Shown here piece after piece: positions 3-35,748 of a stretch of DNA of 64,000 bases. The position numbers and the translations under genes were made by a program. The first letter of the stretch is position 1; each line of letters opens with the position of its first letter. The stretch covers positions 124,001-188,000 of the forward strand of contig OZ237774.1 of assembly GCA_965178125.1 (NCBI GenBank). Direction: 5' to 3'. The notes below the pieces were generated by a model. That model did no database searches. It worked only from the letters and a program-made list of their open reading frames with translations, and was not told where the DNA came from. Source of the DNA: Bilabrum cf. latius. Lineage: Eukaryota.

Positions 3-3000
3 AAGCCCGCGGGTGCAGGATCGGCATTCCGAGCAGCAGCAGCCGCCGCCGGCGCTTCGGCCTCGGGCGATGCCGGCGCCGCGCAGCCTTCCGATGTTCC
101 GCAATCCTTGTCGGAGGACGAGGGGCGCGACCTTGCGATCGCGGCGGGGCCACGCATGGCCGTGCTGTTTTCAGCTCCGGACGAATCGGTGCCCGGGCCC
201 GTATCGGCTTCTATCCAGGGTGCAGCGCACGGCAGTGCACCCGGGGATGTCTGGGCCGCGGACGGACTCGACGCATAGATCGCGGTTGCAACCGCCGTCC
301 TGATGGATTCGGAGCCACAACTCGCGGCGGAGGCAGCGCGGGTCTTGTGGGAGCACTTGGAAGGCGGCGAAACCGCAACCGGCAGAGGAAATGCGCGGCG
401 CCCCCCGGGCCCCCTGGCCATGGTTCCGCTGCTCCCCGCCCGGCTCACCACGGCGGACGGTCCCCTGCACGTGACCCCACGATGGGGGGGGATTTCCCCC
501 GAGTCCCACCGGCTGCTCCCCGGGCCCCTAGGCCTAGCCATCAGCCCCGCCCGGCTGCAGGTGCACGTCACTGCGGTGCTGCTGGCGTCCGGTGGGTCGC
601 AGAAGCCCTTCGATCCTGCGAGCGGAGCGATGCTTCCAGCAGATGACCGCCCATCAGCGGCCCAGCCACCGCGAGCTGCATCGTCATCATCGTCATCGTC
701 GTCGTCGTCGTCACATGCAGCCCAGGCCCAGGCCCTGGCCATCGCCATGCGGGGAGCCCCGGCCGGCGCGCTGGGGCCGTGGATGGGTCGGCTTGGGTCC
801 GGTGTGACGCGCGTGGATGGGGGGGCCTCGACGGGGGCGCTCGTGGGGGCGGCGGCGGGTCTGCGGGCCGCGGCTGACGTCAGCGGGTCATCAGCTCTGA
901 TGGTGCACTCGCTCGGGTCTAGGTGCCTGCGGGCGCCCACCGTGGCCGAGGAACAATCCGCGCTGGGAGTGCGCGGCGCCGGTTCCGCTGTGACGGGCAG
1001 GGTGCTCCGGGTGATGGGCCGGCGGGCGGTGTCGCAGGGCCTGGCGAGGGTGTGGGGCGGGCGTGTGACGAGTGCTGCGGCACGGTTCGGGAGTGGCGGC
1101 GGTGGTGACACGACTCGGGTCGCGGGGACAATTTCGGCACCGGATCTTGCCTGGCTCGCGGTGCGGGTCGCTTCCGGCGGGTCTGGTGGTTCGAGCCGAT
1201 CGAGTGCAGAGGTGGGCAGCAGCAGCAGCAGCAGCGGGAGCAGCATGGATGCCCAGTGGCTGGGGCGATTCGTTGTGTCGCTGCCTGGCGGTGCCCTCGA
1301 CCTCGAGATGGATGCTGGCGCACGGCAGAGGTCAGGGGGCCCTGAACACGATGACGATGGCGATGACGATGACGGTGATAATGGCCATGCTCCGCGATTG
1401 GACGCATAGTCACACCCAGGGCCCAGGGAACAAATGGGGCCCAGGGAACAACTGGGTCCCAGGGAACAACTGGGGCCCAGGGAACACGCCTTGGAAGCCG
1501 CACCCGCCGTGCGCGTGGCGGCGGGCTCGAGGAGCAGATGGCTGCTGACCCATCTCGGTGACCGACTGCGCTTGAGGGGTGGCCAAAGTGGCACCCCGGC
1601 GCGGGAGGGCCCTCGAGCAGCTTCTAATGCGCGAGGCAGGAGCGGCCTGTGGCACCCCTGGGAGGCACTGCCCCAGTACGGTCCCCCGCGCGGCGCCGAC
1701 GGAACCGAAGCGCCGCTGGCTGCGGATTTGACCGCGCTTGTGATGAACGGGCTCTTGTACGCCGGCGGTCTCCGCTCCGATGGAGACGAGGACGGCGGGC
1801 TCGCATCCGGGGAGGATGGTGTGACGAGTGGATCGGATCGCCGCGTGCTGCCGTCATCGCGCCGCCCCTCGGCCCGCGCCGTGCTCGGGCTCCTGGCCCA
1901 GTGGATCCACGAGGATCGGATCACCGTGCCTTGCTTGTTCCCTGGGGAACAGCAAGGACCGCGCGGCAGCACCGCCGGCGGCCAGGCCTCTCGGACCGAG
2001 GGGTCCTCAGGGTCGCAGGTCGATGATGCTGGCCTCGTTGCCGATGCGATCGCCGCCCTGGCCTGGATGGCGGCGGGCCCTCTGCAGCTGCCTGGGATGG
2101 GGGCCTGCGCTGCTGCCGCCTTGTCTGTCGTGGCGCCCGGTATGTTCCGAAGGATGGGGCGGCGGGAGTCGGGAGCGTCGGCCGTGCTGAGGGGTGGTCA
2201 AAGCGGCAGGGGTGGCACGTGGTCGCAGGCGGAGTGGGAGTGGTTCCGCTGCTGCGGCGCCGCGGCACTGCTGCGCGCCAGGCAGGCCACCCCCGGGGTC
2301 GATGGCGAGACTGGGGCAATGCACACAATCTCGATCGAGGTCGCGACGGGGGGCGTGCTACCCGGAGCTGAAACCCTGGCCGATGCCGCGGGGCACCTGT
2401 GGGGCGCCGCGCTTGCGGAACGGGAGCAGAGGCGCCGCGCACGGCTCTGGGCGGCCGCAACGGCTGCTGCCGACGCCGCCGTGGAGTCGTTCCTTCCCAT
2501 GGGTGCAGTGCACGGTGGTGCAGTCGGGTAGGACGCCTCCTCCAGCTGCGAGGGGGGCGGTGCTGGAGCTGCCAGCCCCGATGCGTCCGGCACGGCCATC
2601 GCCAGTGCCATCCCCAGCGCCACGGGTGCTGCTGATTCGAATCCGAGCGGTGCCAGCTCGAAGGCCCCCTTCCGGCACGACTTTGAGTCGCGGGCAGAGG
2701 TGCATCGCACTGTAGTGCTGCGGACCGCGCGCCTATTGCTCCGGATCGGATCTGTGATGGGACCCGAGCAGCTGCCCGAGTGTTCCCCGGAGGTTGCAAC
2801 CGCCGTGCAACGGGCCGCGGAACGGCTGCGGCTTGGCGCGCGCAATGAAGATGAAGAACACAATGCCGCGGGGCCATTGGAGGCTGAGGCCAGGACCGTC
2901 CGGGCCGAGGTCCGCGCGGCGCCTGCGGAACCAGTGGGCACCGGCCCTGCGGCCGACGATGGTCCTGCTCAAGTGCCCACCCCTCCGGTGTCCGATCCAA

Positions 3001-3998
3001 GGACCCGGAGCCGTGTCCTCGAGGTTGCAACCGCGGGTAATTTGCCACCTTCGTGGGCCCTGTGTGCCCTGGCCGCCGCCGCAGACACCGCCAGCAGGCA
3101 CCGGAACCGGGCCGTGCCTCGGGCAGAGCTGGACGACCCGTGCGGGTGGTGGAGGCGCGAGGCGGATCTGTGGGAGGTTGCAACCGCTGTGTACAGGGAG
3201 GTTGCAACCGGGGGGCGCGGGGAGGACAGGGGCGAGGAGGGGGCGGCGCACAGGGTGTTGCGCTCTTTGCGCGGCGCCGGCATGGCGGAACCTCTGGACT
3301 GGGTCTGCTTGGGCCTGGGCCGCATGCCCCGCGGGACGGACGCAGCGGTTGCAACCGCACGCAGGGAACAACTTGCGGAGGCCGCGCGGCGGGGGCGAGA
3401 GCAGAGCGACGGGGGAGCGGAGCGTGCAGGTGCCGGTGCCGGTGCCGGTGCCGGTGCTGGTGCTGGTGCTGGTGCTGGTGCTGGTGCTGGTGCTGGTGCT
3501 GGTGCTGGTGCTGGTGCTGGTGCTGGTGCTGGTGCTGGTGCTGGTGCTGGTGCTGGTGCTGGTGCTGGTGCTGGTGCTGGTGCTGGTGCTGGTGCTGGTG
3601 CTGGTGCTGGTGCTGGTGCTGGTGCTGGTGCTGGTGCTGGTGCTGGTGCTGGTGCTGGTGCTGGTGCTGGTGCTGGTGCTGGTGCTGGTGCTGGTGCTGG
3701 TGCTGGTGCTGGTGCTGGTGCTGGTGCTGGTGCCGGTGCCGGTGCCGGTGCCGGTGCCGGTGCTGGTGCTGGTGCTGGTGCTGGTGCTGGTGCTGGTGCT
3801 GGTGCTGGTGCTGGTGCTGGTGCTGGTGCTGGTGCAGGTGCCGGTGCTGGTGCTGGTGCTGGTGCTGGTGCTGGTGCTGGTGCTGGTGCTGGTGCTGGTG
3901 CTGGTGCAGGTGCCGGTGCTGGTGCTGGTGCTGGTGGGAATGTGGAGGATGCAGATCCCGAAGCTGAAGACGAGCAGAGCGTAAGGAATAACGATGGT

Positions 3999-4030
<32 letters not shown>

Positions 4031-7000
4031 GCACCAGGACGGCAGCGCAATGACGAGTCCAGCCACAGGCACGCACGCGGTTCCGTTCTTCGTCTTGCCC
4101 TTCGAGGCGCCGCGCGGGGGGCGGCGGAACCGGCCCCCCGGCCTGCAGGAGCTGCTCTGGAGGGCGCAGGAACAGGCCCTGGCGCAGTACCGAGGTTCCG
4201 TTAGCGCGCGGCGCCGCGCCGCCGAATCGGAGTCGGGGTGGTCAGAGTCGCCGGGGCTGCTCGAGGTCCAGAGGCTCCGGCGGCAGGCGAGCGGGCAAGG
4301 GGGCAGCTGGCCAGGCAAGCACACGAAGAGAAGCAAGGGCAAGGGCAAGGGCAAGGGCGGTGGGATCCACATGGGTGCCGAGGGGGCCGCGCTCGTCACA
4401 CCGCCCCGGCACCCCGGCTCCTTCGGTTCCATGGATGGATCCATGTCGGATTTGCCGGGCGCCTCTGCCCTTGAAGACCTGGATCAGGCCAGTGGAGATG
4501 GAGGTGGAGGTGGAGGTGGAGATGGCTCGGGCAGCGAGGCGGGGGGGTCGGCCGCGTCGGCCGCTTCGACCACGGGAGGGGGCTCCAGTGCACTGCATGG
4601 TGGTGCGAGCGGGATCGCAGCGAATGGCGGGAGGGGCGACCGGCTGGGCCGGGCCAGCCGGGGGGACTCGGAATCGATGCTTCCCGAGGAGAGGAGGGCC
4701 CTGAGGCGGGCGGCCAGGCGGCACCTGGGCTGGTGGGAGGCACCCGGCAAACCGGAAGAAGGCGCCGCGCACAGCGACACCAGGGCGGCCGAGGCCGCGC
4801 GGAACCGGGCCATCGAACGTTCGTCGGCCGAGAAGGAAGCCGAGGAGCTGCTTCGGTGTGACGAGGAGGACGAGGGGGCGGGCGGCGCCTGCCGGTGGCC
4901 GGGGCACGACCAGTGGCCCGAGGAGTGGGGCCCGGGGAACAGTGTGACGAGTGCGACGGAAGCGGGGGTGCCGGCGATGGAGGGGGTGCATGGGGTGGTG
5001 GGGGACGCGGTTGCAACCGAAGCCGCGGGCCGCGCTCTGGCAGCCGCCGCGGCCGCCGCCGAGGGTGCGACGCAAACCGGCGCCGCGCTTAGCGGAACCG
5101 GTTCCGCACTCGCAACGGACCCGGCGCCGGAGCATCTGCACCTCCCGTCGGACGTGGCCGCGATGCCGGTCGTTGGTTCCGCACAGCTGCTGCCGGCCGG
5201 CGCCGCGGCCCCAGGTCGCTCCCACCCCCCGGGCTCCCCTGCAGCCCTGGCCGAGTGGGTTTTCGGCTCCGAGTGGATGGGCCCCTGCATGGTGCGGGTG
5301 CTGGACCCCCAGGCGGTTGCAACCGGCGCGCAGGGGCACGCCGGCAGCACGACACGCGCGCGGCGCCGCGCGGTTGCGACCAAGCTGGCGCAGGAGGCGT
5401 CGCTGGACGCATCGGCCGCGCGCTCCGGGCGTGCGCGCACGATGGGCCGCGCCCTGGCGATTCTGGCTCCGGATTGCGAGATCGAGGTGCCGAGGGTGTT
5501 CGGAGGCGGGCGGCCGAGAGAGGGGGAGGATACATCCAAGGGTGCATCGCACGGTGGCGCGGGCGCGGCGGCTGGGACCGCCCGCGCACCAGCTGCGGGA
5601 AGCAGGCCCGGTTCCGTGCACGTGCGCGTGCGCGTGCGCGCCCTTGCGATGGGTGTGTCGCCCGACTGGGTGAGCTACCCTGTGCACTCGTCAGTGCTCC
5701 GCGCGGGCGGAGGCTCGCGACTCGGAGCCGCAATCTTGAGGGCCCGAGACAGTTCTTCCAGCGTCGGTGGTGGAGTTGGGGGCAGGGGCGCTGGGAGCCG
5801 AGACGGGTGTGACGAGGACGATTTGGATGGTGTCGCCGGAGCTGCGCCCGGATCTACGGTTTCTGGGGGGTTGGTTGATGGGACGGGCCTCCCGGGACCG
5901 ATTCCCGCTGGTCACGCCGTCCGCGTGCCGGAGCTGCAGCCCCCCGTCGCGGCGCCCGTGCTATTCGGAGCCTATAATGGGGTGGTTCCGCTACCCACGC
6001 GCACCGCCGTGGCCGTGCTTCAGAACGCGCGGCGCCTTGGTATGCGGAACCTGGCGGCGCAGGCGGCGTGGAGCGTGTGGGCCCACGGGATCGGGAGGGA
6101 GGACGCCGGCTCCCTGGCCGAGGCCGGTGTGACGAGTGGGGGGCTGGCCGGCCCCGCCGCCGCCGTCGCCGCCGCGTCTTCGTCCTCCATGGCGTCCTCG
6201 TCAGCCGGCGGCGCCGGTGGTGTGACGAGTGCGGCGGCCCAGCTGGAGAGAGCGCGGCTGTCGTTGCCCGGATCACGGGACTCGGCCAGGTCCTCCATGC
6301 GGGTGCCTCCCGTGGCGGCGGCGGTGCTGTCTTTGGCCACCCTGGCTCCCGCGTTCTCGGAGAGTGGTGGTCGGTCACAGGTTGGCTCGCTCCGGGTCCG
6401 AGCCAGCCTAGAACTGGGGGGCGCTGCGGGGCGGCGGGCGGCGCGGGGGGACGGCGGCGCGCTGCCTCCGCCTGTGGCTGCAGGGGGTGCTAGTGCCCAA
6501 GGGGGTGGCAAAACCGGATCCACCGGTGGAGTGCCTTCCTCTTCTTCTTCCTCAAAGCAGAAGAAAGCGCCGCTCATCGCGCGGTCCTAGGGCGCAAGTG
6601 CTGGCGATGGGGCAGGGACTGCACCTTAGGGTGTCGCAGCGGGTGGCATGGGCATGGGCAGGGGCAGGGGCAGGGGTGCTGGGGCTGGGGCTGGGGCTTC
6701 GCAGCGTGGTGGTGCATGGGGCGGCAGGGGCCGGGGCCGTGGCCGTGGCCGTGGAGTCACCGGAGTTGATTCCAGCTCCGAGTTCGTGTCCCTTGAGACG
6801 GCGCTTGCGATGCGGCAGTCGGCTGCATCGCACGGTAGTGCGCGCGGCGCCGGTGCATCGGTTCCGCTGACGAGTCGCCAGATCCGTCGCCAGAACGAGG
6901 AGAGGGAGATGGCGCTCCGCCGGCAAGCGGTGAGGCTTTAGGAGCAGGCGAGGCAAATGGGACTTCCGGTGGAGCTGGTGCGGCAGCTGGCTGTGGAGAG

Positions 7001-7280
7001 GGAGCGTGAGCGGGAGGCAGCGCTTCGGGAGAGTGTTAGTCGGCAGAGGGGCGGCGGGGGCAGCGGCACAGCGGACGCGTTCACGCTGGGGGGTGGAGGC
7101 GGTGTGACGAGTGGAAGCGGTGTGACGAGTGCTGGGCTGGGCCCCGGTCTGCTCGAGGGGAAGGACAGCGGGGGTTCCGGTTGGACGGGCGATGGCGATG
7201 ATGATGATGATGATGACGAGAGCAGCAGCAGCGGTAGCAGCAGCGACGGGGAGTGGGAACGAGAGGATAGTGACGAGTGA
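3..7280 (+). CDS. Large low-complexity protein of unknown function (5'-partial, >2400 aa), continuous only if TAG is a sense codon
   Basis: ORFs 303-1409, 1434-2531, 2700-6590, 6648-6941 and 6957-7280 share one frame and are separated only by TAG (276, 1407, 2529, 6588, 6627, 6939). The frame is open to the window edge and ends at TGA 7278-7280. No recognisable domain. Confidence 0.75.
1420..1487 (+). repeat. 4 x 18-bp tandem repeat (GGGCCCAGGGAACAACT-like), in coding sequence
   Basis: Read directly. Encodes GPREQ(L/M). The CAGGGAACA core also recurs in tandem near 13925-13960 (reverse) and 20918-20944. Confidence 0.85.
3426..3936 (+). repeat. (GGTGCY)n hexamer microsatellite, ~510 bp, encoding poly-(Gly-Ala)
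   Basis: About 85 consecutive GGTGCT/GGTGCC units, in frame with the surrounding CDS. Confidence 0.97.
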
Positions 7281-7455
7281 TATGGAATAGGTGTGACGAG
7301 TGATGGCGGGACGGGTTCAATCGACTGCCGCTCCACAGCCAAGCATTCAACATGCACAGAGCGCACTTGCCATTTTCTTATATTTGGAGGACCAAACCAC
7401 ACAGCACGCTCGCCCACCCACTCAACGGCGATCACACCGCTCTTCACACCGCTCG

Positions 7456-8373
7456 TCACACCGCTCCGTCCACAGCGGCCCGGATGGCCTCGATGGCACC
7501 CGCTGGGCTCTCCGCCTTGAAGACCCCCGTCCCGCTCACGATCACATTGGCCCCCGCCTTCCCCACGGCCTCGGCGGTTTCACCCGCCTTGATGCCCCCG
7601 TCCACCTGGATGTGCATGCCCGGGCACTTGCCCCGGATCGCGCTCACCTTGCCCATCTGGTCCGACATGAAGGACTGGCCCCCGAACCCCGGCTCCACTG
7701 TCATCACAAGAGCGAGTCCGACGAGTGGCCGGCGCTCTTCTCCTGCTCCCCCTGCTCCCACCTTCGATTCCCCTTCCCCGCTCGATTCAGTCCGCGACCC
7801 ACCACCCGCACCCCATAGCGCCCTCTCCTCCACCGCCACCTTCTCGGACCTCTTGCTCGCCTCCTCCTCCAGCTCGCGGAGAGTGTAGGTCTGCTCCAGG
7901 AGAGGCATCACGTCCTCGATCGCGGTTCCCGGCTTGATGGCCACGCCGGGTCGCATGCCCAGCCTTCGGATCTGCCGGCACAGTTCAGCGGCATCGTCGG
8001 CGCCCGAGCACGTCTCCCAGTGGAACGTGAATCCATCGGCGCCTGCGGCAGCAAACTGTTCAACCCATTTTCTAGGCTCGGAAACCATTAGATGACAGTC
8101 AAGGTACGCAGGTTTCTCGCCCTTTCCTCTCGGGAAGTGCGCCCTGAGCGCCTTGATAACCGGATGCCCGATCGTGAGATTTGGGACGAAGTGTCCGTCC
8201 ATCACATCCATGTGAAGCCAGTCAGCACCGCAATCAATCATGCGTTTGGCTTCGGAAGAAAGATTGGCAAAGTCGCTCGACAGCATGGATGGGGCAATGA
8301 TTGCTTTGGCCGCTTCCCCCTCGCGAACAACCGAAGGTTTAGCCGATGCAGCAGATGCTGAAATTCCTGCCAT
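7456..8373 (-). CDS. RPE: Ribulose-phosphate 3-epimerase
   Basis: Motifs IAPSMLSSDF, HMDVMDGHFVPNLTIG, DCHLMV, VMTVEPGFGGQ and IQVDGG. Likely ATG at 8373, TGA stop. Has a ~50-aa insertion before VMTVEPG. Confidence 0.93.
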   Translation of the reverse strand: MAGISASAASAKPSVVREGEAAKAIIAPSMLSSDFANLSSEAKRMIDCGADWLHMDVMDGHFVPNLTIGHPVIKALRAHFPRGKGEKPAYLDCHLMVSEPRKWVEQFAAAGADGFTFHWETCSGADDAAELCRQIRRLGMRPGVAIKPGTAIEDVMPLLEQTYTLRELEEEASKRSEKVAVEERALWGAGGGSRTESSGEGESKVGAGGAGEERRPLVGLALVMTVEPGFGGQSFMSDQMGKVSAIRGKCPGMHIQVDGGIKAGETAEAVGKAGANVIVSGTGVFKAESPAGAIEAIRAAVDGAV

Positions 8374-8579
8374 ACTGAAGTGATTCAACCTGGTGGTGAG
8401 CTGATATAATCGACAACTTGTTCTATTAATCCGTGCTAAATGGGCTGCTCGCATGCAAAGATGCGCATGATGCGCTGTAGTTGCTGTACGGTATACGTGT
8501 CCCAAACTGCACCTTATCTGATCCGATCCAATCCACCACGCCAACCCCGTACCTGCATTAGGAGGTTTTCGTCGTAGCC

Positions 8580-9305
8580 ATGGTGAGATATCTATAGAAA
8601 TATGCACTACGTGTGGCATATACATACTTGTTACCATGACTGATCAGTTGCGATTGTGCAACCGGTGAAACGGGCTAGGCAGGCCGAATTGTAGATGCAC
8701 TAAACCTGCACGCCTACTGTATTCGCGCTTTCTCAATGCAGGCGGACTTTTCCATGGGACCTGATTTCCAGTACATTCTGCGTATTCTGAACACCAACGT
8801 GGAGGGCCGCAGGAGTGAGTTGCCTCGCCAGCCTAACTAATTAGCACCCTGTTATCGAAGCGCCAACGGCAGGCACTGTCCCACCGGCCCCTCATTGCGT
8901 GCCACAATACCATGAAGCCCATGCGTTGTCTTAATTTCACTTCTTGCAGACATCATGTACGGGCTGACTGCCGTGAAGGGTATCGGCCGGCGTTTCAGCA
9001 ACTTGCTGCTCAAGCGCGCTGGTGTCGACACCAGGAAGCGCGCCGGTGAGCTGACCAAGAAGGAGACCGAGCTCGTGCTGCGAGTGCTCGAGAACCCCGC
9101 CGCGTTCGGCATCGAGGACTGGTTCCTCAACCGCCGCAAGGATTTCGACACGAACAAGAGCATGCAGGTGTACAGCAACACCCTGTCCACTGCCCTGCGT
9201 AACGATCTCGAGCGCATGAAGAAGATGCGCCTGCACCGTGGTGTGCGCCATTTCTGGAAGCTGAAGGTGCGCGGACAGCACACTTGCACCACCGGCCGCG
9301 GCTAA
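8580..9305 (+). CDS. RPS18: 40S ribosomal protein S18 (uS13); exons 8580-8582, 8742-8814, 8950-9305
   Basis: FQYILRILNTNVEGRR|NIMYGLTAVKGIGRRFS...HRGVRHFWKLKVRGQHT. Intron 8815-8949 (GTGAGT..GCAG) restores the frame. The first intron 8583-8741 is inferred; the alternative is an ATG at 8736. TAA stop. Confidence 0.93.
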
Positions 9306-9787
9306 GCGACTGGCTGGGAGCAGCATTGGTTGCAATGGTGAAAGGGGGAGCAGCGGAGGGATAGGTTGGTGGATTTGGGTGGGGAAGACCAGCAGGACGG
9401 CTCTGGTGCAAACAGGAATATGCACAGTCATTCTGTGTATTGTTTTGAGTAGTACCGATGGGAGTCTCGTGTCCTCTGGACCGAGAGGGCTGGATTAGAT
9501 TTGGTGCGAAGTTGAGCCATGCCAGCTCGTTGCATCTTGCGCCTCATTTGGTGCGTGGTGGCGACTGGACCGATATACCACTTCGTCTCCAAACTGTAGG
9601 TGGTGATTTCGCGAATTCAATTCATCATTTAGGTCCGAATAGACCTAAGCACTCAGCCTGGTGGTGCCTTCGTGCACGTGGCGGCAACTGTTGCACTTGG
9701 CACGACCCAAGAAAACTATAATTTCAATCACATACGCGCCATGGCAGTCAGTCACCTTCCCCGTAATGCTCACCGGGAAGCGCCGAT

Positions 9788-21200: not shown

Positions 21201-21351
21201 CGAAGACAAATTGAGAAGGTGCTCCCTGTGCGTGACAGCTGCACCGAATGAAGCATGCATGCTCAATTGTCCGTCACCTAGGACGGAGCAGTAGGTGATG
21301 TGGCTGTGCGATCAGCTGCTCGGCGACTCAGAAGGGGAGTACGGGAAATGA
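18253..21351 (+). CDS. RNI-like leucine-rich repeat protein (~1030 aa)
   Basis: LRR units LAQALANNCSLLQLNIS, LQCNASIQSLRLSG, LARNRSLLELRLAGC and MQALDLSGN. Fragments share one frame across TAGs at 18844, 18889, 19231, 19342, 20356, 20518, 20524 and 21292. TGA at 21349. Start uncertain. Confidence 0.75.
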
Positions 21352-21599
21352 CGCGCAAGCAAATGAAAACCCAGAACACAAGAAAATATTACGCAATGGA
21401 TCATGCTGTGAGTTTTCGATTGCGTGCGCTCAATTTGCCGGTCATCCCAGGGGCTTCCGTATGTGAGGTTGCAACCGCATTGGAAGCGAGCACGGGTTGC
21501 CGTTGTCGCGCGTTGCAGCCTTTGCTCATTCACAGCTACTGGCTCGCAACCAACAGCGAGGCAGCGTATTCGAAACAAACCTCAACCAAATTGACAACC

Positions 21600-26211: not shown

Positions 26212-26391
26212 TGATCCCGGATTGCGTACGTATTACTCAAGTCAGAATCCGAAAAACACAACGTAACTTACTGTCGCGCTGATGGGGTTTTACGGAGTTT
26301 GCTTCGAAACGTAACCAGGGCCACAATGAGAACAACTCATTTTTAACGCACGTTCCTTTATAACTAATCCCTGGGAGGGCAGTCGAAATGC

Positions 26392-29300
26392 TCAGTCAGT
26401 TGCCCCGCAATACATACCGTGGACAGCGGACCAAAGCCCCAGGCACGCCTGCCTTGCCCCCTCCGCGGGCCAGCAGCCATCCACCGTTGGACGACGATTG
26501 AAACCCACCGCAGAGTCCCCTGCACTCGCCATACCAGTCCCACTGCTGATACCATTGGCATCGCCACCATGTCGACCCCGCGAGGCACCGAAATCGAGTC
26601 GCCTGCCCTGCCCCAGCATGCTGCCCGCCTCCGCCCCTGCTCCGCCCGCAGCGGCTTCACGAGCGGCTGCAATCTCCTCCTTCGCTTCCGAGTGCATCCG
26701 CGCCAGCCGCAACGCAGCCCTGCGGAGCCGGACGAGCCTTCTCGCGTGCCCCGCCGCACTCGTCACACCTGCCTCCTCCAGGCCGTCCAGCGACAGCTGC
26801 ACCAGCTGCGCTGCGGCCCCGATGGAGGCGCCCACCCAGCTCTCCAGCGCCTAGATCGCACTCGTCACCCTGGCATCACCCGCAGAGCGCGCGGTTTCTT
26901 TTTCTTCTGTTCCTGCCAGGCTTCTTCCTCGCTTTGATCCACCGGTGGGCTTTGCGCCGGACATCCAGGACTCCCCGGTGACCATGTGCGCGTTGCGGGC
27001 GTTGCTGGTGCGTGTGACGAGCTAAGGGGGTAGGAAAGGACCCGGAGCCGGAGGCAGGGTCGCGACCAGCGCCTCCCACGGCGGCAGCTCCCCTGGGGGT
27101 AAGTTCCGCACGGCGCCGCGCAATCCATCTGCCAGGGTCTGCTCGCCAGCCACCTCGATGGCTTGCCTGAATCCCGCCGCAGTGCGATGCACGTCGGGCA
27201 CGAGCGCGCCTCCGTGCATTGCACCCGTCGAAGGCCCCGCACCAGCCCCCGCACCGCTCTATGCCTCACCATTCGATCGGAGCAATCCGGCCCCCTGCTC
27301 CTTCAGCTCCAGCCTGGGCAGCTCGGGGGCGATCACAGGCACCCCATGGGCCCTGTGGCCCCGGGGCGCGACCACGACCGTCGGCTCCGCAGGACAGCGG
27401 AACCGATCCACGGCCTCCACGGCGCCGCGCAGATCCGCAAAACCGGAAGAGCGAAGAGACTCCCAGGGAGAGGCCTTGACTCCGCTACCACCGTGCGATG
27501 CACCCTCATCCCCACCGTCTCGCTCCTGCCCTCCCGCGGATAATATCGGCTCCGAGTGACTCATCGTCATCATCGCCCCAGCGTCTGCGAGAGCAGCGTC
27601 CAGCTGGTCCTGAAGGTCTGCCTGCAGCCCCAGGCCGGCCCACCGCCCCCCCGAACCGGCCTCAAAATGCAAGGCAGACTCCAGAGGCATCGGCGGTGCG
27701 CCGTCGTGCGATGCACCTTCACGGTGCCCGTAGGCAGGACCCGCCACGTCAGGCAGGGAGTCGCGGTCCTGCCCCCCCTCGCTCTCTTCGGCTCCTGCCT
27801 GCCCGTCCGTATCTGCACCACCGTGCGATGCACCCTCGAACACCGAGCCGCCACGTTCTGACCCCTGCGGGGTCAGTGGCCGCTGCTCCTCTGCCCCACG
27901 GGGTGTCAGTCTGCTCCCCTTCGGTGTCAGATTGCCCCCCATGCCCCCCCGGGGGGTCAGCAGGGGCGCGTCCCCCGGGATACCACCCCCCCCATCCAGC
28001 GGTACCCCCACCTCCGAACCGGTCGCAACCGACATGGCAGAAGCAGAGGCCTCCTGACCCGTTTGCAAATGAAGATGAAGATGAGATCCGGGCCGCTTGA
28101 ACGAGCTCCCCGGTGCGCCGCTGGGTCGGCCCCCCATAGGCTGCCCCTCCGCGGCGGCAGCTCTAGGGCCGCGAGCACTTTCGATTCCGGGTGCATCGAG
28201 GCCGCCTCGCTCCCCGCGGCGGCGGCTGCTCGACCTCGACCGGCTTGCGGAACCAACGCTCAGAAGCGCGGCGCCCCACGGGGCCACCGGCACGCCGAGC
28301 ATACCCACCTGCAGCCCGCCGGCACCTGCCGGTGCCGTGCCAGCCGCACTCGTCACACCAGCTGCCCCAGCGCCCACCATTGGCATACCCCCGACACGCC
28401 CCGTAGGCGCACTCGTAACAGCATCGGCGGCTCTGCCCAAGAGCTGCACGGCCGCTTCCTCCTGCCCCGCACCACCGTGCGCTGCACCCTCGGCCAGCGC
28501 GCCCCCCTCTCTTCTCTCAAGCACCCGCCTGCACACTCTCCTTAGCACTGCAGTGGGATGCTCCAGCCGGCAGCTGCCCCCGAGCGATTTCCGGCCCACC
28601 ATGGACCTGGTCACCGTGGTGAAGACAAAGTCTTCAAACCCGCAGCTGCGCGCGTACAGCCGCATCTCCTCTCTGGTCAGGCCCAGCTCCCGCTCCGCAC
28701 TCGTCACACCGTCCACGTCCAATTCTCCGGACGAGGTGCCGGCCTGCATGCCCCCCCTGCCATCGCCCCCCGGGCCGCCAACCCCCCCACCCCCACCGTC
28801 CCTTGCGCCCTTCTGGGCCTTCCTCTGGATCACAACCAGCCCGCCCGTGTCTTCGGCCTGCTGCTGCTGCACCTGTGAGGCACCTGCCTGCAGCTCCCGG
28901 ACGATCGGAGCCGAACCGTCCCCGCCCACGGTGCCCCCGCGCACGCCCCTAGCTCCACCCTGAATGCCAGCGCCCGCGATCCGATCCTGACCCGCGCCGG
29001 TTTGACCACCCCCGTCCCGATCCGATCCGTAGCGATACCTGCTGCTGCCTCTCGCACCACCTCTAGCCCCGCCTCCCCCCATCCGGTCGGTGTATCCCCC
29101 CGACCCCTCCTCCTCGTCCTCGTACTCCTCTTCCGTTGCGTGCACCGTGGGCAGCATGTCTGCCCTATGCGTCATCAGCACCATCTCCGTCCCTTCCGCC
29201 CTTGCCCGCCTTTGCACCACCTCCCTCCAGTCGTCCACCGCCTCGGCCCCCGCGTCATCCCCGCCGTCCAGCACGAACAGGATGGCATCCGCCGATCGGA

Positions 29301-30162
29301 GCAGCAGGCCAAGGTGCTCCGAGGACCCCCCCAGGAGCTCGCAGTATGGCACCTCCCACAGGAAAAGTGACACCGAGGCGTCGCTGTCAGAAACTGACCC
29401 CGAGGATGCCCCTCCGGATCGATGGCCCCGGGCCGGCCCACTCGTCACACCGGAAACCGTGGCACGCCGGCCGCTGCTCCTTCCACTCCCGGACCGCTGC
29501 ACCGCCGTCGCGCGCGGCGCCGCGTCCGAAATGCGGAACCGTTTCACGACCGTCAGCTCCGCACCCACCGTCATCCGCCTCTGAGTGGGTTCCGGTTTCC
29601 CCGCGATGCACCGCACGATGGTGCTCTTGCCCGAGCCGTTGGCGCCGACCAGCAGCACCGTCACGTTTCTCCTCGCCTGGAGGGACTGGAGGGCTCCAAG
29701 GTCAGCAGCGTACGCGTGGGAACTCTTCGTGACGTTTCGCAGACATGCCCGGGAAATGTCTCGGACCTTCTTTCGCGCAATGCGATGCACCTTGAGGACG
29801 GCCCGGGCGTCGGGTGGCTACGGGGCACCGGCCGTCTTTCGTGCCTCACCAGCGCTCCAATCGGATCTACGCCGGGTGAGCTTTGATGACCCGTCCCTGC
29901 TCCGTCGGTCTCCTCGTGTCAGCGAACGTTCCTCCACTGATGGTTCGCCGTTGGAGCGGGAGGACGCTGCCTTGCGGGCGAGCGGCGGAAGGGAGCCAGC
30001 AGCAGCTGCCGCCGAAGTGTCGTATCCTCCCACGGTTCTGCGGCGACCGTGCGCGCCAGCACTTTCAGTTATACTGGAGGCGCCGTCGTACTGGCTGCGG
30101 TCCACGCTGGACTGGGCGTCAGAGGGGCGCCTGTCGCTCGATCGATCCGGTTCCATGGCCAT
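26392..30162 (-). CDS. Atypical Ras/Rab-like P-loop GTPase-domain protein with a long disordered C-terminus (~1250 aa)
   Basis: G1 VLLVGANGSGKS, G2 MTVG, G3-like LFLWEVP, ADAILFVLD and G4-like MTHRAD. TAGs at 29818, 27259, 27022 and 26851. TGA at 26392. Confidence 0.7.
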
Positions 30163-30589
30163 CGCAAAAATGCGGCTTTGAATCAGCTTTCAATTTGCTG
30201 CAAACCGTGGAGAGCATACATGATGAATAAGGTCAAGCAGTGAATGGCATAGTTTGGATCCAGCACGCCAAATCAAGCAGGGTGCCATCGGAGTGCAAGC
30301 ATGTGCAACCGCGCTCCACATGCAAACACAGCCAGAACTCACGATGTCCACCTTGCTTGCACTGAGTTGTTAACTTATAAACTTACTAAATGACGAATAT
30401 TTACTGCAAATGCACGAGCACAGGCGACAGTACGCGAAACCGAGCAATTTGCTATGCTGCTCAATAGCGAAGGTTCTTCTTGGGTTCGTTGACCAAAAAA
30501 TGAGGCGAGTTCTTTGGCTCATTTTTGGCTCTCGCAGCCATCACTCGCGCACAGCTATCTCACGAACTGTTTAAGAGTGATTTCAACAG

Positions 30590-33500
30590 ATGGGAGTCCC
30601 CGCATTTTTCCGATGGCTCAAGGAGAAGTACCCAAAGATTCTGCTCGAGTTGATCGAGAGCGAAGTTGTGGACCTACCAGATGGTACCCGAGTGCCACCA
30701 GATTGGACTAAACCGAATCCAAATGGCGTGGAATTTGATAATTTATATATTGACATGAATGGGTGAGATTCTCGCTTATTTAAAGCTGCATTCATCGTTC
30801 GGCAATTGCTTGCGTTCTGAAGTTACTTCCGTTTCAGGCCAGGCAAAGCTGTACATTATTTCGCAGCGTTATTCACCCATGTGTACACCCGGAAGATATG
30901 GCAGCCCCGCGTAGCGAGCAGGAGATGTTCCGAAACGTGAGCACAGACACTATCGATGTCGCTCCCGAGCCTGCACGTTCCACTCGAGCACCGTACCATG
31001 ATCACACCACAACCAGCCCGCATAAACATGACACCCATTGCCATCTAATCCGCAGATTTGCCTGTACATCGACCGTCTCATGGCTGCCGTGCGCCCCCGC
31101 CGCCTGCTCTACCTCGCCATCGACGGCGTGGCTCCCAGGGCCAAGATGAACCAGCAGAGGACGCGCAGGTTCAAGACCGCCAAGGAGATCTCGGAGCACG
31201 AACGTGTGGAGAAACAGGTCAGGAAGGAACGGCTCCGGGCCCTCGAGAAGAAAAAAAGAAAGAAGAGAAAGAAGAGGGGCGGTGAGGGGGACGCCTCCAG
31301 CGGGGCTGGGGGGGACGACACAGTAGCAGGCGAAATGCAGGACGGCGATGACGATGACGAGGATGATGACGAGGACGAAGAGGAGGAGCTGTCCGAGCTT
31401 CCTCGCCAGACGGACGATTTTGGCAGGATCCTCGGCAAGTTCGACCACAACGTGATCACCCCAGGCACGCGTGAGCGTAGCAGTGTCTGCTTGCATTGCA
31501 GTGCATTGCAGTGGATTGTTCCCCGCAGGCACACGCCTTGACTCTCCAGGAGTACTTTCTGTTTTCTCTTATCCACACACGATTCTCTTTGGCCTCGCAG
31601 CGTTCATGGATCGCCTGGCCCGGTTCCTCAGGTTCTACATCGCGGAGCGGCTGAACAACCACCCGGGGTGGGACGGTGTGGAGGTCGTGTTCTCGGACGC
31701 TTCCGCCCCGGGAGAGGGGGAGCACAAGATCATGCAGTTCATCAGGGCACAAAGGGCGCAGCCGGGGTACGACCCGCACACTCGTCACGTGCTCCACGGC
31801 CTGGACGCCGATCTGATCATGCTGGGTTTAGCCACCCACGAGGCGCACTTCTCCATCCTCAGGGAACAAGTGTTCCCCAACAGACGGAGGGGAGGCCGTG
31901 CGGCGCAGAAGGAGGAAGAGGAGAAGTTCCGCAGGGAAAATCTTGCGCGGCGCCGGCGGATCTTCCGCGACGGCGACGTGGGCGTCCCCTTGAAACCGCT
32001 GCAGCTGCTGCAGATCTCGGTGCTTCGGGAGTATCTGGCCGCGGAGTTCTCCTCCCTGGACCCGAAAAGTGACCCCGCGCTCCGGGCTCAGATGGCCAGA
32101 GCGGCAGAAGGGGGTCAGTTTGCGGCACGAGGCCAGGCGCACACCCCCTTGCCCTTCCCCTTTGACATCGAGCGGATCGTTGACGACTTCGTGTTCATGT
32201 GCTTCTTCGTCGGTAACGATTTCTTGCCACACCTGCCCTCTTTGGACATCCGCGAGGGCGCCTTGGATCTTTTGATCGAGACCTACAAGCAGGTCCTGCC
32301 GGCACTGGGCGGCTATTTGACCAAGGAGGGCGAGATTGACCTGGTGCTGGCCGACGTGCTGCTCTCCAGGATCGGGCTGGTGGAGGACGAGATTTTCAGG
32401 AGGAGGCGGGAGAACGAAGAACGGATGGCGAGGAGGAGGGCGAGTCAGATGCACCAGCAGGCGCAGGGTGGCCAAAGTGGGCACAGAGGGCCCGGGGGCA
32501 GGGGCGGTGCAGCACCGGCCCCCGCCGCCATCCACGACATGATGCCGGCACGGGGACAGGGACAGGGGCAGGGCTCGGGGGGTCATGGACAAGGGAGGGG
32601 CGGAGGGCATGGAGGCACCGGCGCGAGCGGGCTGCTGGGCGGCGCCCCTCCTGGTTCCGCAAGCGCGGCGCCGGCAGGGCTCGGGCGCCAGGACAGCGTG
32701 CAGTCGGCCGCCAGTGCGGCATCCTCCACAGCCACCGGCGGCGCCGCGCATTCGCAGGGTGGCGGTTCCGCAGACCTATCGGAGGAAGCGCGGGAAGCGG
32801 CGCGCTCGGTGGCGGATCGGATCAGGAACGCGGGTGGCGGTGCCATGAACGTTGCGGCCAGGAGTCACGCCGTTGATCTCTCGGGTCAGGGGTAGCAGGC
32901 TCGGGCGCGACTCGCGGGTCACGACGCGTCGCAGGAGGCCCCCGGGCTCGATCTCGGGATCGAAGGCGGCTAGGGTGGTCAAAGCGGCGCGGCCTCTGGT
33001 GCCGGCTCCGAATCCAAGACCCAGAACCAGAGCGCTGCGGACGCTTTGCGGGACCGTATGCGCAAGGGCAAGGGCAAGGGCAAGGCAAAGGGCGGAACGG
33101 GCGAAAAGCGCGACAAGCCTCAGAAAAAGGCAAAGCAGGACAAGGAGCATCCGTCGGCCAAGGGGTCGTCGTCATCGTCATCGTCATCGTCATCCAGGAG
33201 CAAGCAGGCCGCAGCTGCTTCCAGTGCAGCCTGCGAGGACGCGGCACAGGCGGCCATGGTCGACGCCGAAGGTTCCTCGGAATTCAGCAAACCCGCTGAC
33301 GTGGCATCCGACCCGGTTGCAACCGCAGCTGGGGGCGACGGCCCGCCCGAAGATGCCGAGGGGGCGGACGAGGACGAGGACGAGGACGAGGCTGCATCGG
33401 CGGAAGAGCTGGAGGACTTGGAGGGAGTGGACGGAGCGGGGGGGTTGGACCTGCTGCCCGAAGGTGTGACGAGTGGGTCTGTTCCCATGGAGGGGGGCGA

Positions 33501-35748
33501 TGCCGGCGCTGCCGCAGCATCGAAGCCACCGTCCTCCTCCTCGTCCTCGTCCTCCTCCTCGTCCTCTTCTTCGAGCAAGGCCACCACTGCCGCTGCCGCT
33601 GCCACCGCCGCCAGCACGCCCGAATTCGAGCAGGAAGTCAAGCGTGCGGTGAAGCTCGCCATGGAAGACCTCCGTGCTGTGGACGAGCTTAAGCTGAGAG
33701 AAACCGATGAGGTGAGGCTGGGCGAGGCGGGCTGGAAAGAGAGATACTACAGGTGCAAATTCGGTGCCAAAGGGGTAGAGGGGGGCCAGCTGCGGAAGCT
33801 CATCTGCAGGAAATACGTAGAGGGTCTGCAGTGGGTGTACGGGTACTACTACAAGGGGGTTTGTTCCTGGGACTGGTACTACCCCTTCCACTACGCCCCA
33901 TTTGCGAGCGATCTGAACCAGGTGGATCAGTACAGGGCGACTTTCTCCCTCGGGAGGCCCTTCAAGCCCATTGAGCAGCTCATGTCGGTGCTGCCTGGGA
34001 GGTCTGCTCACTGCCTTCCGCCCGCGTGCGCGAGGCTCATGCGGCTCAAGTCTTCGCCCATTGCAGATTTCTATCCGTTGGATTTCCCCGAGGATCCCAA
34101 CGGGCACAGGTACCAGTGGCAGTGGGTGGCACTCCTGCCATTCATCGACGAGAAGAGGCTCCTGGAGCAGGTTCGCTAGCTGGAGGGAACGTTCACTGAG
34201 GAGGAGAACAGGCGGAACAGCCTAGGGATGGACCTGGTCGTGGCCAGGAGGACGCACCCCCTGGTCCGGGGGATCGGATCAAAGCTGGTGGTGTCCATCG
34301 AGGACGATGATGACGACGATGCAGCCGTCGCCGCAGCTGCAGCGGGAGAGAAGGCCGAATCTTCATCTGCATCTTCATCTTCATCGAGCGCGTCTGCCCC
34401 GGGGGGTGCGTCGAGTGACGGTGGGGGCCGGGAAGTGGTTCCGTTTTCGCACGAAGACGGGCGCCGCGCAGCGAACCGCCCGCTTGGCACGTCCGGCCGC
34501 TTGCTCAAGATGGCAAAGGGGCACTTCTGGCCCGTCGACTCGCGGATCGACCCCTACCGGCTCGGGATCTGGGCCGTGTCCGAGGACTTCGACGCGGCGC
34601 CGCGCAGCGGTGGTTCCGCAATCGGGGGAGGCGGCCCGATGGGCGTCCTGCGGAACTTCGCAGAGGGCGTGCTGCGCAGCGCCGCCGCCGCCTTCTCGTT
34701 GCTGCCTCCCCCTGCACGGCCGCACGCGTGTCACCTGCTGCCCGGTGCTCGCGAGGATAGCCCGGTGCTCAGGCAGGGGGATTACCTGGGTAAGATACCC
34801 AGGCTGAGCAGGGGCGTGTCGGTGGTGGATCTGGTGCTGGGGCCCGGCGCGGGAGGCGGGTACAGGGGGGGCGGGGGCAGGGGCGGATACCGGGGGGGGA
34901 GGGGGGGCAGAGGAGGTCGGGGAGGTAGAGGGGGCTGGGGCGGTGGTGGGCGGGGGCGAGGTGGTGGGGGACCCCCCGGGTGGGGGGGACCCCCCGGGGG
35001 GTATCGCCAGGGGTAGCAGTGGCAGGGACAGGGATACAACCGCAGTGCGATGCATCCGCCACAGGCTTAGCATTGGCAGCAGCAGCACCACCACCAACAG
35101 CCGAGCGGTGCCTATCCACAGCACCAGCACCAGCAACACCACCAGCAGCACCACCAGCACCAGCAACACCACCACCACCAGTAGGGGCAGTATTAGGGCC
35201 ATGGGCAGTACCAGGGGCAGCAGGGGAACGGCAGGTTTCAGCCCCGTCCTCGAATGGGGAACACGCCCCACGGGTACCCGCCGCACTCGTCACACGGGTA
35301 CCAGCCCCAGCCCCAGGGCCATTACCAGCCCCAGCCCCAGCAGCAGCACCATGCTCCCGGGGGTGGCATGGGCTGGGGTCCCCCCGCGCCCGGCAGTGCC
35401 GGTGCAGGGTATGGCCAGTATGCCGCTGGGGGTGCATCGCACGGTGGTGCACCCGGCATCGGTGCCAAGCGGTCGGCGGGTGCTGCGGGACTTGGCGCGG
35501 GGCCTGTGGCATAGCAGGGGGGGGCGTACGGGGGGCCGGCAGGGGCGGGTGCATCGCACGGCGGTGCCCCGTCGGCTGGCAGTGCTATGGGTGCTCAGGC
35601 GGCTGCCCTACTCAGCGGGAATTGGTCGGCGGTGCGGGGTCGGGGTCGGGGGCGCGGTGGCGGCAGGGGCAGGGGCAGGGGCAGGGGCGGCAGCAGCAGC
35701 AGGGGAGGAGGCGGAGGCGGATTCTCGTTCCGTGGGTTCTAGGGGTGA
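30590..35748 (+). CDS. XRN2: 5'-3' exoribonuclease 2 (Rat1/XRN2); exons 30590-30762, 30867-30936, 31056-31470, 31601-35748
   Basis: [78 protein letters not shown] and LPFIDEKRL. Three GTGAG..GCAG introns, 9 in-frame TAGs, RGG/Q-rich tail, TGA at 35746. XRN2 rather than XRN1 is inferred from length and tail. Confidence 0.92.

Follow-up and report, generated by a model that had tools for sequence, protein, structure and literature searches.

The stretch of DNA considered here comprises 64,000 nucleotides from Bilabrum cf. latius (contig OZ237774.1 of assembly GCA_965178125.1, positions 124,001 to 188,000 of the forward strand), and is referred to below as the window. It carries a 12-mer, GTGTGACGAGTG, in 35 exact copies, 21 on the plus strand and 14 on the minus strand, while 100 dinucleotide shuffles contain it 0.02 times on average and never more than once. 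This over-representation, which is confirmed as real and amounts to approximately one copy per kb in genes, raises the question of the level at which the word is kept, and by what. The explanation that we favour, with a probability of about 0.5, is that GTGTGACGAGTG is a genomic word specific to its lineage, and that it is recognised and kept in the form of duplex DNA rather than as a peptide motif, transposon relic or splice signal.

The word and the level at which it is kept

At up to two mismatches, 65 sites are found in the window (35 exact, 16 with one mismatch and 14 with two). A preliminary description of this DNA had counted about 50 exact or near copies, which agrees with the 51 sites that have at most one mismatch, and all 12 positions that it named carry the word, 11 exactly and the one at 16350 with a single mismatch. 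The 10-mer core GTGACGAGTG occurs 43 times against 0.18 expected, with 42 of these copies between 1 and 35.3 kb and one at 60928; every exact copy of the 12-mer lies within the first 35.3 kb. The ratio of exact to one-mismatch copies is 35:16 in the window and 67:10 in 20 related metagenomic loci, the latter having been chosen for a pair of exact copies, which biases both their densities and their exact:near ratios upward. The fuller form of the word is G-GTGTGACGAGTG-C, with G at -1 in 23 and C at +1 in 20 of the 35 exact copies; its edges are sharp at 12-14 nt, and outside GTGTGACGAGTG the logo is otherwise flat (0.6 bit or less) in the 35 window copies as well as in 63 copies from metagenomes. 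Within these limits the copies are identical even at synonymous sites. The word is non-palindromic, its reverse complement being CACTCGTCACAC, and has an internal 9-nt period (GTG-TGACGA-GTG); the only bZIP/CRE (cyclic-AMP response element) feature that it contains is the TGACG half-site, the full palindrome TGACGTCA being absent.

A codon-aware null was obtained by shuffling synonymous codons within genes (n = 1000), a procedure that keeps every protein and each gene's codon usage, and it yields a mean of 0.36 and a maximum of 4 copies in open reading frames (ORFs), versus 34 observed. The tripeptide Val-Thr-Ser (VTS) occurs 31 times against 4.0 expected from amino-acid composition (approximately 8-fold); 26 of the 31 are encoded by the identical nine bases GTGACGAGT, and the five that are not are in line with expectation. 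AGT is a minor Ser codon, and GGT, usually found ahead of the word, is not the most frequent codon for Gly. The uniform spelling of VTS, taken together with the excess over the synonymous shuffle, implies that the word creates the peptide excess and not the reverse, and upholds the earlier proposal that it is maintained at the DNA level and imprints the proteome. The opposite reading, in which G-V-T-S-[A/G] would be selected as a short linear motif, such as a site of modification within disordered regions, while the identity of the DNA would be incidental, could draw on the copies that encode G/S/R-V-T-S (23 of the 33 coding ones in the window, 36 of 51 among relatives), and on the surroundings of the copies, which are slightly enriched in small residues (0.483 versus 0.449). 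It is nevertheless close to refuted, and we consider it extremely improbable: besides the single codon set with its rare codons and the outcome of the shuffle, 10 coding copies encode other peptides, and copies are also present in an intron and in an untranslated region (UTR).

The ORF map used here is based on open frames and domain matches rather than transcripts, such that some "coding" copies may be intronic; on this map, coding sequence accounts for 33 of the 35 exact copies, and the other two are in the intron of a WNK-like kinase gene and in a 3' UTR. The word is read in the sense frame xGT GTG ACG AGT Gxx, giving G/S/R/C-V-T-S followed by A or G, in 23 coding copies; four more are sense C-D-E-C and six are antisense (four H-S-S-H and two T-R-H-T), a strand skew of 27 sense copies among 33. 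The third sense frame holds a TGA and is used at gene ends only. The earlier statement that the word occurs on both strands and in different frames thus stands with regard to strands and to the variety of frames, but the spread is not even, since one sense frame dominates. Its placements outside ordinary coding sequence were borne out: the kinase intron (GTGAGA...CGCAG, approximately 16341-16546, minus strand) holds the copies at 16350 and 16366 in its last 36 nt, antisense to the gene; the copy at 7291 begins 11 nt past the TGA of ORF 3-7280 under the present gene model; and the one-mismatch copy at 7450 contains the stop TGA of the RPE gene, after which two further degenerate copies come in frame at a 12-nt period. 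The TGA of ORF 3-7280 itself consists of the last two bases of a two-mismatch copy and an A.

Pairwise flank agreement beyond the 12-mer equals that of a column-shuffle null, with a longest shared extension of 7 nt, which indicates that the copies have not spread as parts of longer segments; the distribution of flank extensions likewise rules out variable-tract copy-paste. A relic of a transposon, an introner or a miniature inverted-repeat transposable element (MITE) is ruled out by the lack of shared sequence beyond the core and by the logo, flat outside -1 and +1. Among 95 TGACGA cores, GTG stands on both sides 35 times and any other identical pair of flanking triplets only twice, which excludes a transposon footprint with variable target duplication. 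A 5' splice site is also ruled out, as the four introns read start with GTGAG and end with GCAG, and ORFs cross the word for thousands of codons. At the one copy where this can be tested, the C-D-E-C at 19608, the word lies inside a match to LRR_6 in which 21 residues correspond to 21 profile positions with no change in length, indicating substitution and not insertion. Close pairs of copies in the window and its relatives are direct in 39 of 39 cases and inverted in none, and their spacing is a multiple of 3 in 32 of the 39; of the five pairs in the window, one is a plain tandem duplication and four have unrelated spacers. Arrays detected by Tandem Repeats Finder (TRF) hold copies only at 7093-7131 and 7432-7466, the other copies being dispersed, and a simple tandem repeat or minisatellite is thus ruled out in the window. 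Two functional candidates were also rejected: a role in translation termination, with copies at 2 of 12 ORF ends in the window and 1 of 52 in relatives, and a role in supplying off-frame ("ambush") stops, of which the word gives a minority (7 of 26 TGAs in the +1 frame of ORF 3-7280) and which would not explain a 12-mer.

Distribution, companion words and related contigs

The distribution of the word divides the window into two domains (Table 1), with eight consecutive genes that carry the word or a near copy, followed by five genes that do not. Word density rises with GC across the window. In tiles of 250 nt, the region 1-35.5 kb has 31 copies in 24.25 kb of coding tiles with GC of at least 0.62 and 2 copies in 2.5 kb of non-coding tiles with GC of 0.55-0.68, while 35.5-64 kb includes 11 kb of tiles with GC of at least 0.62, both coding and non-coding, with no copies, and GC therefore does not explain the distribution. 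Word density is thus shown to follow the chromosomal domain, irrespective of GC or of coding status, the non-coding part of this statement resting on two copies. Domain B also contains a satellite at 44641-48660 with units of approximately 490-720 bp, dispersed duplicates at 40729/50186 and 42539/53732 (99% and 91-98% identical, approximately 9.5 and 11.2 kb apart), and an inverted 43-nt repeat at 40755, 50212 and 50765.

The preliminary description had considered this word only; GTGTGACGAGTG is one of several over-represented words, and its presence follows a domain that ends at approximately 35.75 kb. In a screen against an order-3 Markov model of the window, companion words were found that are concentrated in the first 35 kb and that each prefer one strand and frame: GGTTGCAACC is read as V-A-T in 11 of 12 cases, TGCATCGCAC as A-S-H in 9 of 12, GGTTCCGC as G-S-A in 16 of 36 and GGCGCCGCGC as G-A-A in 13 of 39. 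GGCGCCGCGC and GGTTCCGC often stand 5-20 nt apart, then encoding G-A-A-Q-x-G-S-A. Further companion words in 283-35500 are GATCGGATC, CAGGGAACA and CCACCGGTGG, and only GGTTGCAACC and CCACCGGTGG are perfect 10-bp palindromes. The shorter companions GGTTGCAACC, GGCGCCGCGC, GGTTCCGC, TGCATCGCAC and GATCGGATC would appear to follow the same logic as GTGTGACGAGTG.

A scan of metagenomes for two copies of the word within 30 nt returned at least 120 loci, most of which are unrelated minisatellites built on a 9-nt unit. At least 19 loci (L002, L014, L019, L021, L023, L037, L039, L059, L061, L068, L085, L091, L092, L094, L099, L104, L113, L115 and L119) have, in addition, companion words and giant ORFs that are rich in in-frame TAG and end in TGA. 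Among the 51 ORF copies listed for these 19 loci, 36 are in the same sense frame, 2 are C-D-E-C and 13 are antisense; none of the related loci listed overlaps the window, and one of them recurs at 99.8% identity in a contig of a second metagenome. The occurrence of the word, its frame bias and the TAG code in at least 19 independent loci makes the word a property of a lineage and not of this assembly. An assembly, adapter or contamination artefact is a negligible prospect, given that ORFs of up to 2425 codons stay open through the copies, that the same word in the same frame appears in approximately 20 contigs of independent metagenome assemblies, and that a sequencing-run index places a 10-kb stretch in runs of three studies at half of its words or more. 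Some of the indexed runs contain 48-84% of the 31-mers of the window, and no RNA run is among those listed. In the related contig L099, the 2708 codons at 3-8126 that encode a HECT-type ubiquitin ligase include 30 in-frame TAGs but not the word, which is present twice in the next ORF, so that its distribution is patchy there too.

Prokaryotic reference genomes (25 loci) and viral contigs (2) were rejected as further carriers, as they hold only local minisatellites in standard-code contexts. Minisatellites on GTGTGACGA-like 9-nt units, or on longer units that include the 12-mer, were seen in many metagenome and prokaryotic contigs (L005, L040, L053, L101, L117, L135, L142 and others); such unrelated arrays give spurious matches in searches keyed on the word.

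Candidate processes behind the word

If GTGTGACGAGTG is kept as duplex DNA, a sequence-specific process acting in domains such as A would favour the exact word, most likely in the form of recombination-linked biased correction or gene conversion, with a protein that recognises approximately 12 bp either as its agent or as a partner. New copies would arise mainly through point substitution of near-matches and through local duplication, and selection on the encoded proteins would decide where copies survive. The frame with an in-frame TGA would be lethal except at gene ends, the frame xGT GTG ACG AGT Gxx (G-V-T-S-A/G) would dominate by fitting weakly constrained Gly/Ala/Ser-rich segments, the other four frames would each be approximately ten times rarer, and the 8-fold excess of VTS would be a by-product of the word. 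In the favoured frame, and in no other, every codon starts with a purine, so that it fits ordinary coding periodicity. Sense C-D-E-C (four copies in the window and two in relatives) is no more frequent than the antisense frames taken singly, a pattern that speaks for a filter of protein tolerance rather than for an intrinsic strand preference. Non-coding copies occur in either orientation, the intron pair being antisense and the 3' UTR and stop-codon copies sense. A bias linked to recombination is favoured because the word is present throughout the domain, irrespective of coding status, and its presence accompanies higher GC and a lower repeat content.

The drive step of this scheme is one that we purely infer, and several observations weigh against the scheme itself. 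The sense excess (27 of 33 coding copies, and 38 of 51 in relatives) and the sense orientation of the stop and 3' UTR copies are what an RNA element would also predict. Where copies stand in tandem arrays or close pairs, the word does not visibly resist change better than the spacers do: two of the seven units in L091 have a changed word, and several window pairs have a mutated partner. The four of five window pairs with unrelated spacers would fit adjacent insertion or paired-site selection equally well. Non-coding DNA of domain A is small (5.25 kb), so that the lack of a coding preference rests on two copies; domain B could be free of the word by being young or foreign and not by recombining less, and the link to recombination comes only from the higher GC and fewer repeats of domain A.

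A serious rival, suggested by the excess of sense copies and by their presence at stops and in UTRs, is an RNA-level cis-element, in which the sense transcript would carry the site of an RNA-binding protein reading approximately 12 nt (candidates being helical-repeat proteins of the PUF or PPR kind) and mark a regulon of mRNAs, with antisense copies as non-functional by-products; we judge it unlikely, though worth keeping in view. The RNA contains UGUGA, and the sites of PUF proteins start at UGU. In addition to the coding skew in the window and in relatives, the sense orientation is shared by the copies at the RPE stop and at 7291, relative to their genes, and by non-ORF pairs in L021, L023 and L092, relative to the neighbouring ORF. 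Within the kinase, leucine-rich repeat (LRR) and 23947-26211 ORFs, sense copies are concentrated in the 3' half, and some long ORFs wholly lack the word, as a regulon would predict. Such an element does not, however, account for the antisense pair at 16350/16366 in the intron, for the approximately one quarter of copies that are antisense, or for a sense C-D-E-C frame that is not enriched over the antisense frames, and a contiguous 35-kb block of eight genes followed by five without the word looks positional rather than gene-specific. A coding filter alone can also produce a sense bias, as is described for bacterial uptake sequences in the accessible portion of PMC2817400.

Neutral insertion is slightly less likely still: a repair or polymerase activity would paste the same oligonucleotide of 9-12 nt, often beside an existing copy, and tolerated in-frame copies would persist and then decay. 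Sharp edges, unrelated flanks and a word length that is a multiple of 3 are all consistent with pasting, as are the five close pairs in the window against approximately 0.7 expected from density (an estimate), four of them with unrelated spacers; the exact:one-mismatch ratio would then mean an average decay of only about 4%, also an estimate. The copy at 19608, however, replaces residues of LRR_6 with length unchanged, variable target duplication is not seen (non-GTG identical triplets flank TGACGA in 2 of 95 cases), the near-copy in the TIG gene belongs to normal coding sequence, 29 kb of domain B, unconstrained DNA included, lack the word, and no mechanism is known that inserts a fixed 12-mer. 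The same LRR copy, which looks like a substitution within the repeat, speaks against a recombination scar or pointer, that is, a single site left in a somatic genome after a recombinase has removed elements flanked by direct repeats of the word, which would have to stay exact and would survive in translatable frames. Exact conservation, sharp edges, the uniformly direct close pairs, and companion words GGTTGCAACC and CCACCGGTGG that as perfect 10-bp palindromes resemble recombinase core sites could all be accommodated by such a scar; nothing in the evidence points to a germline/soma split or to an inserted element, and we regard the scar as very improbable.

The favoured reading, recognition of the word as duplex DNA, can be extended to a molecular drive run by a eukaryotic nucleus, in which a small family of DNA readers, each with its own word of 8-14 bp, would bias mismatch correction or gene conversion toward exact words in recombining domains. 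The words would spread through genes, write GVTS, VAT, ASH, GSA and GAAQ into disordered regions, and mark long-resident recombining DNA as against word-free, repeat-rich or new DNA, in a nuclear counterpart of uptake-sequence and HIP1 biology within a lineage that reads TAG as sense. This extension is speculative, and we hold it to be doubtful as a whole.

Hyper-abundant DNA-level words are known from bacteria (uptake sequences, HIP1 and Chi), where they have helped in the study of molecular drive, DNA uptake and chromosome organisation. The comparison drawn at the outset, with uptake sequences and HIP1, holds, in that these are the closest systems found. The uptake signal sequences (USS) of Pasteurellaceae and the DNA uptake sequences (DUS) of Neisseria share with the present word a length of 9-12 nt, a density of approximately one per kb, an excess of exact over near copies and a location mostly in genes, in preferred frames and in poorly conserved parts. 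DUS and USS often form inverted-repeat terminator pairs, whereas the close pairs here are all direct (39 of 39) and several words coexist; the host here is, moreover, a eukaryote, in which an uptake-driven bias cannot be assumed. According to the part of PMC2817400 that is accessible, uptake sequences approximately double the frequency of the tripeptides that they encode, show reading-frame bias, occupy poorly conserved positions and are missing from recently acquired genes; VTS is raised here approximately 8-fold, and recent acquisition is one possible reading of domain B. The palindrome HIP1 of cyanobacteria (GCGATCGC) is, in the available sections of PMC5861425, 15- to 300-fold over-represented and conserved within and between ORFs, without a peptide or RNA function and possibly linked to chromosome structure, and the sequence-specific DNA enzymes to which it has been linked are methyltransferases (PMC4390886, in its available sections). 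The present word resembles it in being hyper-abundant within and between ORFs and maintained rather than neutral, and two of the companion words are palindromes; the main word differs in being non-palindromic, 12-14 nt long, located in a eukaryotic nucleus and all-or-none by domain over tens of kb. A vocabulary of companion words further sets it apart from both systems.

Other known elements are more distant. Chi and the bacterial words KOPS (FtsK-orienting polar sequences) and AIMS (architecture-imparting sequences) are over-represented, oriented words within genes that are read by a DNA-processing machine, but orientation here flips with that of the genes on the kb scale and not with the replichore, and we know of no counterpart of RecBCD or FtsK in eukaryotes that acts as these do for Chi and KOPS. 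PRDM9-type motifs and the M26/CRE hotspot of fission yeast combine 7-15 bp, a DNA-binding protein, recombination and GC-rich DNA; GTGTGACGAGTG shares the TGACG half-site with the latter but lacks the full CRE palindrome, and hotspot motifs are eroded by their own activity whereas the word here is accumulating. Rickettsia palindromic elements, introners and MITEs are dispersed repeats that are tolerated and translated in coding sequence, but such inserts have at least 100 nt with internal sequence and target duplications, while nothing is shared here beyond 12-14 nt. Exact-string and keyword searches of the literature found no such word in a eukaryotic nuclear genome, returning only primers and unrelated papers.

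Genes, genetic code and significance

The genes of the window had been read with the standard code in the preliminary description, which has to be corrected: TAG is a sense codon, and most of the supposed gene structure resolves into giant continuous ORFs, the longest of 2425 codons, once TAG is read through. The cadherin/IPT-TIG gene at 57754-63999 has five in-frame stops, all of them TAG and all inside conserved repeat motifs (in-frame TAG is seen, for example, at 59278, 59806, 60721, 60775 and 62905). Ten ORFs together have 59 in-frame TAG, no in-frame TAA and 49 off-frame TAA, and TGA stands at all 12 of 12 ORF ends; on these counts TAG is a sense codon and termination falls mainly to TGA, with TAA probably retained as a stop. 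In the HECT catalytic motif of contig L099, TAG aligns with R, at a position where other HECT ligases presumably have Q, V or M; in GH3 it aligns with T and A. A search for a tRNA with a CUA anticodon found no tRNA in the window or in the 19 related loci. A reassignment of TAG only, in a GC-rich and possibly stramenopile protist, may itself be unreported; UAG-only reassignments are known elsewhere, as the accessible parts of PMC5304391 and PMC11687900 describe. The TAG-sense ORF map (Table 1) was preferred to a coding-potential model trained on conserved domains, which performs poorly on low-complexity ORFs.

The host is a eukaryote, as indicated by a U6 spliceosomal small nuclear RNA gene at 17795-17904 on the plus strand (58.3 bits, E = 4e-12), between the kinase and LRR genes, and by spliceosomal introns. 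The four introns read (three in the 5' part of XRN, 30600-31610, plus strand; one ahead of the kinase domain in WNK, 16341-16546, minus strand) are approximately 100-205 nt long and follow the pattern GTGAG...(C/T)GCAG, with an AT content above that of the exons. The 22 tandem repeats listed all have a period divisible by 3, as densely packed coding DNA would predict. Inside ORF 3-7280, a (GTGCTG)n hexamer array found by TRF (85 copies, 3424-3936) encodes approximately 170 residues of alternating Gly-Ala, and similar arrays are seen at 24899-24957 and 35119-35181. With respect to a Blastocladiella homologue, RPE has at 7740-7900 (minus strand) an E/G/S-rich low-complexity insertion of approximately 55 residues between conserved blocks, and the GC of its gene, judged by eye, goes from approximately 48% in the 5' part to approximately 65% in the 3' part. 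For XRN the best named match is Cafeteria roenbergensis (62% identity), the top Atlas cluster being mostly Haptophyta; a GC of approximately 70% is given for the genus Cafeteria in the accessible part of PMC6972860. Close orthologues were not found, with none above 58% identity for RPE and none above 62% for XRN, and the C-terminal segment of the kinase is without a homologue.

Table 1. Domains, TAG-sense ORFs, copies of GTGTGACGAGTG and over-represented words of the window.
Feature	Position	Strand	Remarks
Domain A, word-rich, GC-rich	1-35748		8 consecutive genes, all 35 exact copies, most companion-word copies
Domain B, word-free	35749-64000		0 exact copies; satellite, dispersed duplicates; genes still with in-frame TAG
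ORF	3-7280	+	2425 codons
RPE	7456-8643	-	TAG-sense ORF
WNK-like kinase gene	9788-16340	-	TAG-sense ORF
LRR protein	18223-21351	+	TAG-sense ORF
ORF	21252-23525	+	TAG-sense ORF
ORF	23947-26211	+	TAG-sense ORF
P-loop (ABC-like) protein	26392-30189	-	TAG-sense ORF
XRN	31456-35748	+	TAG-sense ORF; first exons upstream of long ORF
GH3 glycosidase	51036-53867	-	TAG-sense ORF
Cadherin/IPT-TIG gene	57754-63999		TAG-sense ORF
Exact copy	1063-1074	+	ORF 3-7280, sense, R-V-T-S
Exact copy	1819-1830	+	ORF 3-7280, sense, G-V-T-S
One-mismatch copy	4390-4401	-	ORF 3-7280, antisense
Exact copy	4942-4953	+	ORF 3-7280, sense, S-V-T-S
Exact copy	6127-6138	+	ORF 3-7280, sense, G-V-T-S
Exact copy	6220-6231	+	ORF 3-7280, sense, G-V-T-S
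Exact copy	7102-7113	+	ORF 3-7280, sense, G-V-T-S; first of 18-nt tandem pair
Exact copy	7120-7131	+	ORF 3-7280, sense, G-V-T-S; second of 18-nt pair with 7102
Exact copy	7291-7302	+	3' UTR of ORF 3-7280, sense
Two near copies	7438-7461	-	7450 one-mismatch (RPE stop TGA), 7438 two-mismatch; in run of three in-frame TGAs, 12-nt period
Exact copy	10075-10086	-	WNK-like kinase ORF, sense, S-V-T-S
One-mismatch copy (C7 to T)	10255-10266	-	kinase ORF, sense, G-V-M-S
Exact copy	10441-10452	-	kinase ORF, sense, G-V-T-S; paired at 18 nt with one-mismatch copy 10459
One-mismatch copy (C7 to T)	10459-10470	-	kinase ORF, sense
One-mismatch copy (T11 to C, synonymous)	10822-10833	-	kinase ORF, sense
Exact copy	11119-11130	-	kinase ORF, sense, G-V-T-S
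Exact copy	11266-11277	-	kinase ORF, sense, G-V-T-S
Exact copy	11348-11359	+	kinase ORF, antisense, H-S-S-H
Exact copy	11848-11859	-	kinase ORF, sense, G-V-T-S
Exact copy	12841-12852	-	kinase ORF, sense, G-V-T-S
Exact copy	13479-13490	+	kinase ORF, antisense, T-R-H-T
Copy pair	16350-16377	+	16350 one-mismatch, 16366 exact; end of WNK intron, antisense
Exact copy	19608-19619	+	LRR protein, sense, C-D-E-C; within LRR_6 repeat match, length unchanged
Exact copy	19776-19787	+	LRR ORF, sense, C-D-E-C
Two one-mismatch copies, 18 nt apart	20100-20129	-	LRR ORF, antisense
Exact copy	20244-20255	+	LRR ORF, sense, C-D-E-C
Exact copy	20392-20403	-	LRR ORF, antisense, H-S-S-H
One-mismatch copy	20552-20563	+	LRR ORF, sense, G-V-T-N
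One-mismatch copy	20721-20732	+	LRR ORF, sense, C-D-E-C
Exact copy	20807-20818	+	LRR ORF, sense, S-V-T-S
One-mismatch copy	20885-20896	+	LRR ORF, sense, D-V-T-S
Exact copy	21045-21056	+	LRR ORF, sense, C-D-E-C
Exact copy	21122-21133	+	LRR ORF, sense, G-V-T-S
Exact copy	22674-22685	-	ORF 21252-23525, antisense, H-S-S-H
Exact copy	24756-24767	-	ORF 23947-26211, antisense, T-R-H-T
Exact copy	25472-25483	+	ORF 23947-26211, sense, R-V-T-S
One-mismatch copy	25815-25826	+	ORF 23947-26211, sense, G-D-E-C
Exact copy	25967-25978	+	ORF 23947-26211, sense, C-V-T-S; first of 18-nt pair, spacer unrelated
Exact copy	25985-25996	+	ORF 23947-26211, sense, G-V-T-S; second of pair with 25967
One-mismatch copy	26112-26123	+	ORF 23947-26211, sense, C-E-E-C
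Exact copy	26757-26768	-	P-loop/ABC-like ORF 26392-30189, sense, G-V-T-S
One-mismatch copy	26859-26870	-	P-loop ORF, sense, R-V-T-S
Exact copy	28347-28358	-	P-loop ORF, sense, G-V-T-S
Exact copy	28698-28709	-	P-loop ORF, sense, G-V-T-S
Exact copy	29439-29450	-	P-loop ORF, sense, G-V-T-S
Exact copy	33464-33475	+	XRN ORF, C-terminal low-complexity part, sense, G-V-T-S
Exact copy, last in window	35284-35295	-	XRN ORF, antisense, H-S-S-H
One-mismatch copy, domain B	51308-51319	-	GH3 ORF, sense, G-V-T-N
One-mismatch copy, domain B	56180-56191	+	intergenic
Over-represented word GGTTGCAACC			12 sites; read V-A-T in 11/12
Over-represented word GCGCGGCGCC			44 copies
Over-represented word GCGGAACC			40 copies
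Over-represented word CAGGGAACA			24 copies
Over-represented word GATCCGATC			17 copies
Over-represented word GTGCGATGCA			12 copies
Over-represented word CCACCGGTGG			5 sites

In practical terms, the TAG-sense code means that annotation with the standard code fragments these genes and invents introns. Should a sequence-specific drive or reader be what maintains it, the word would provide a tractable case in which forces acting at the nucleotide level shape the sequence of disordered proteins. It would also serve as a natural marker that separates chromosomal domains, or resident from recently arrived DNA, and as a simple sequence signature by which to recognise the organism in metagenomes.

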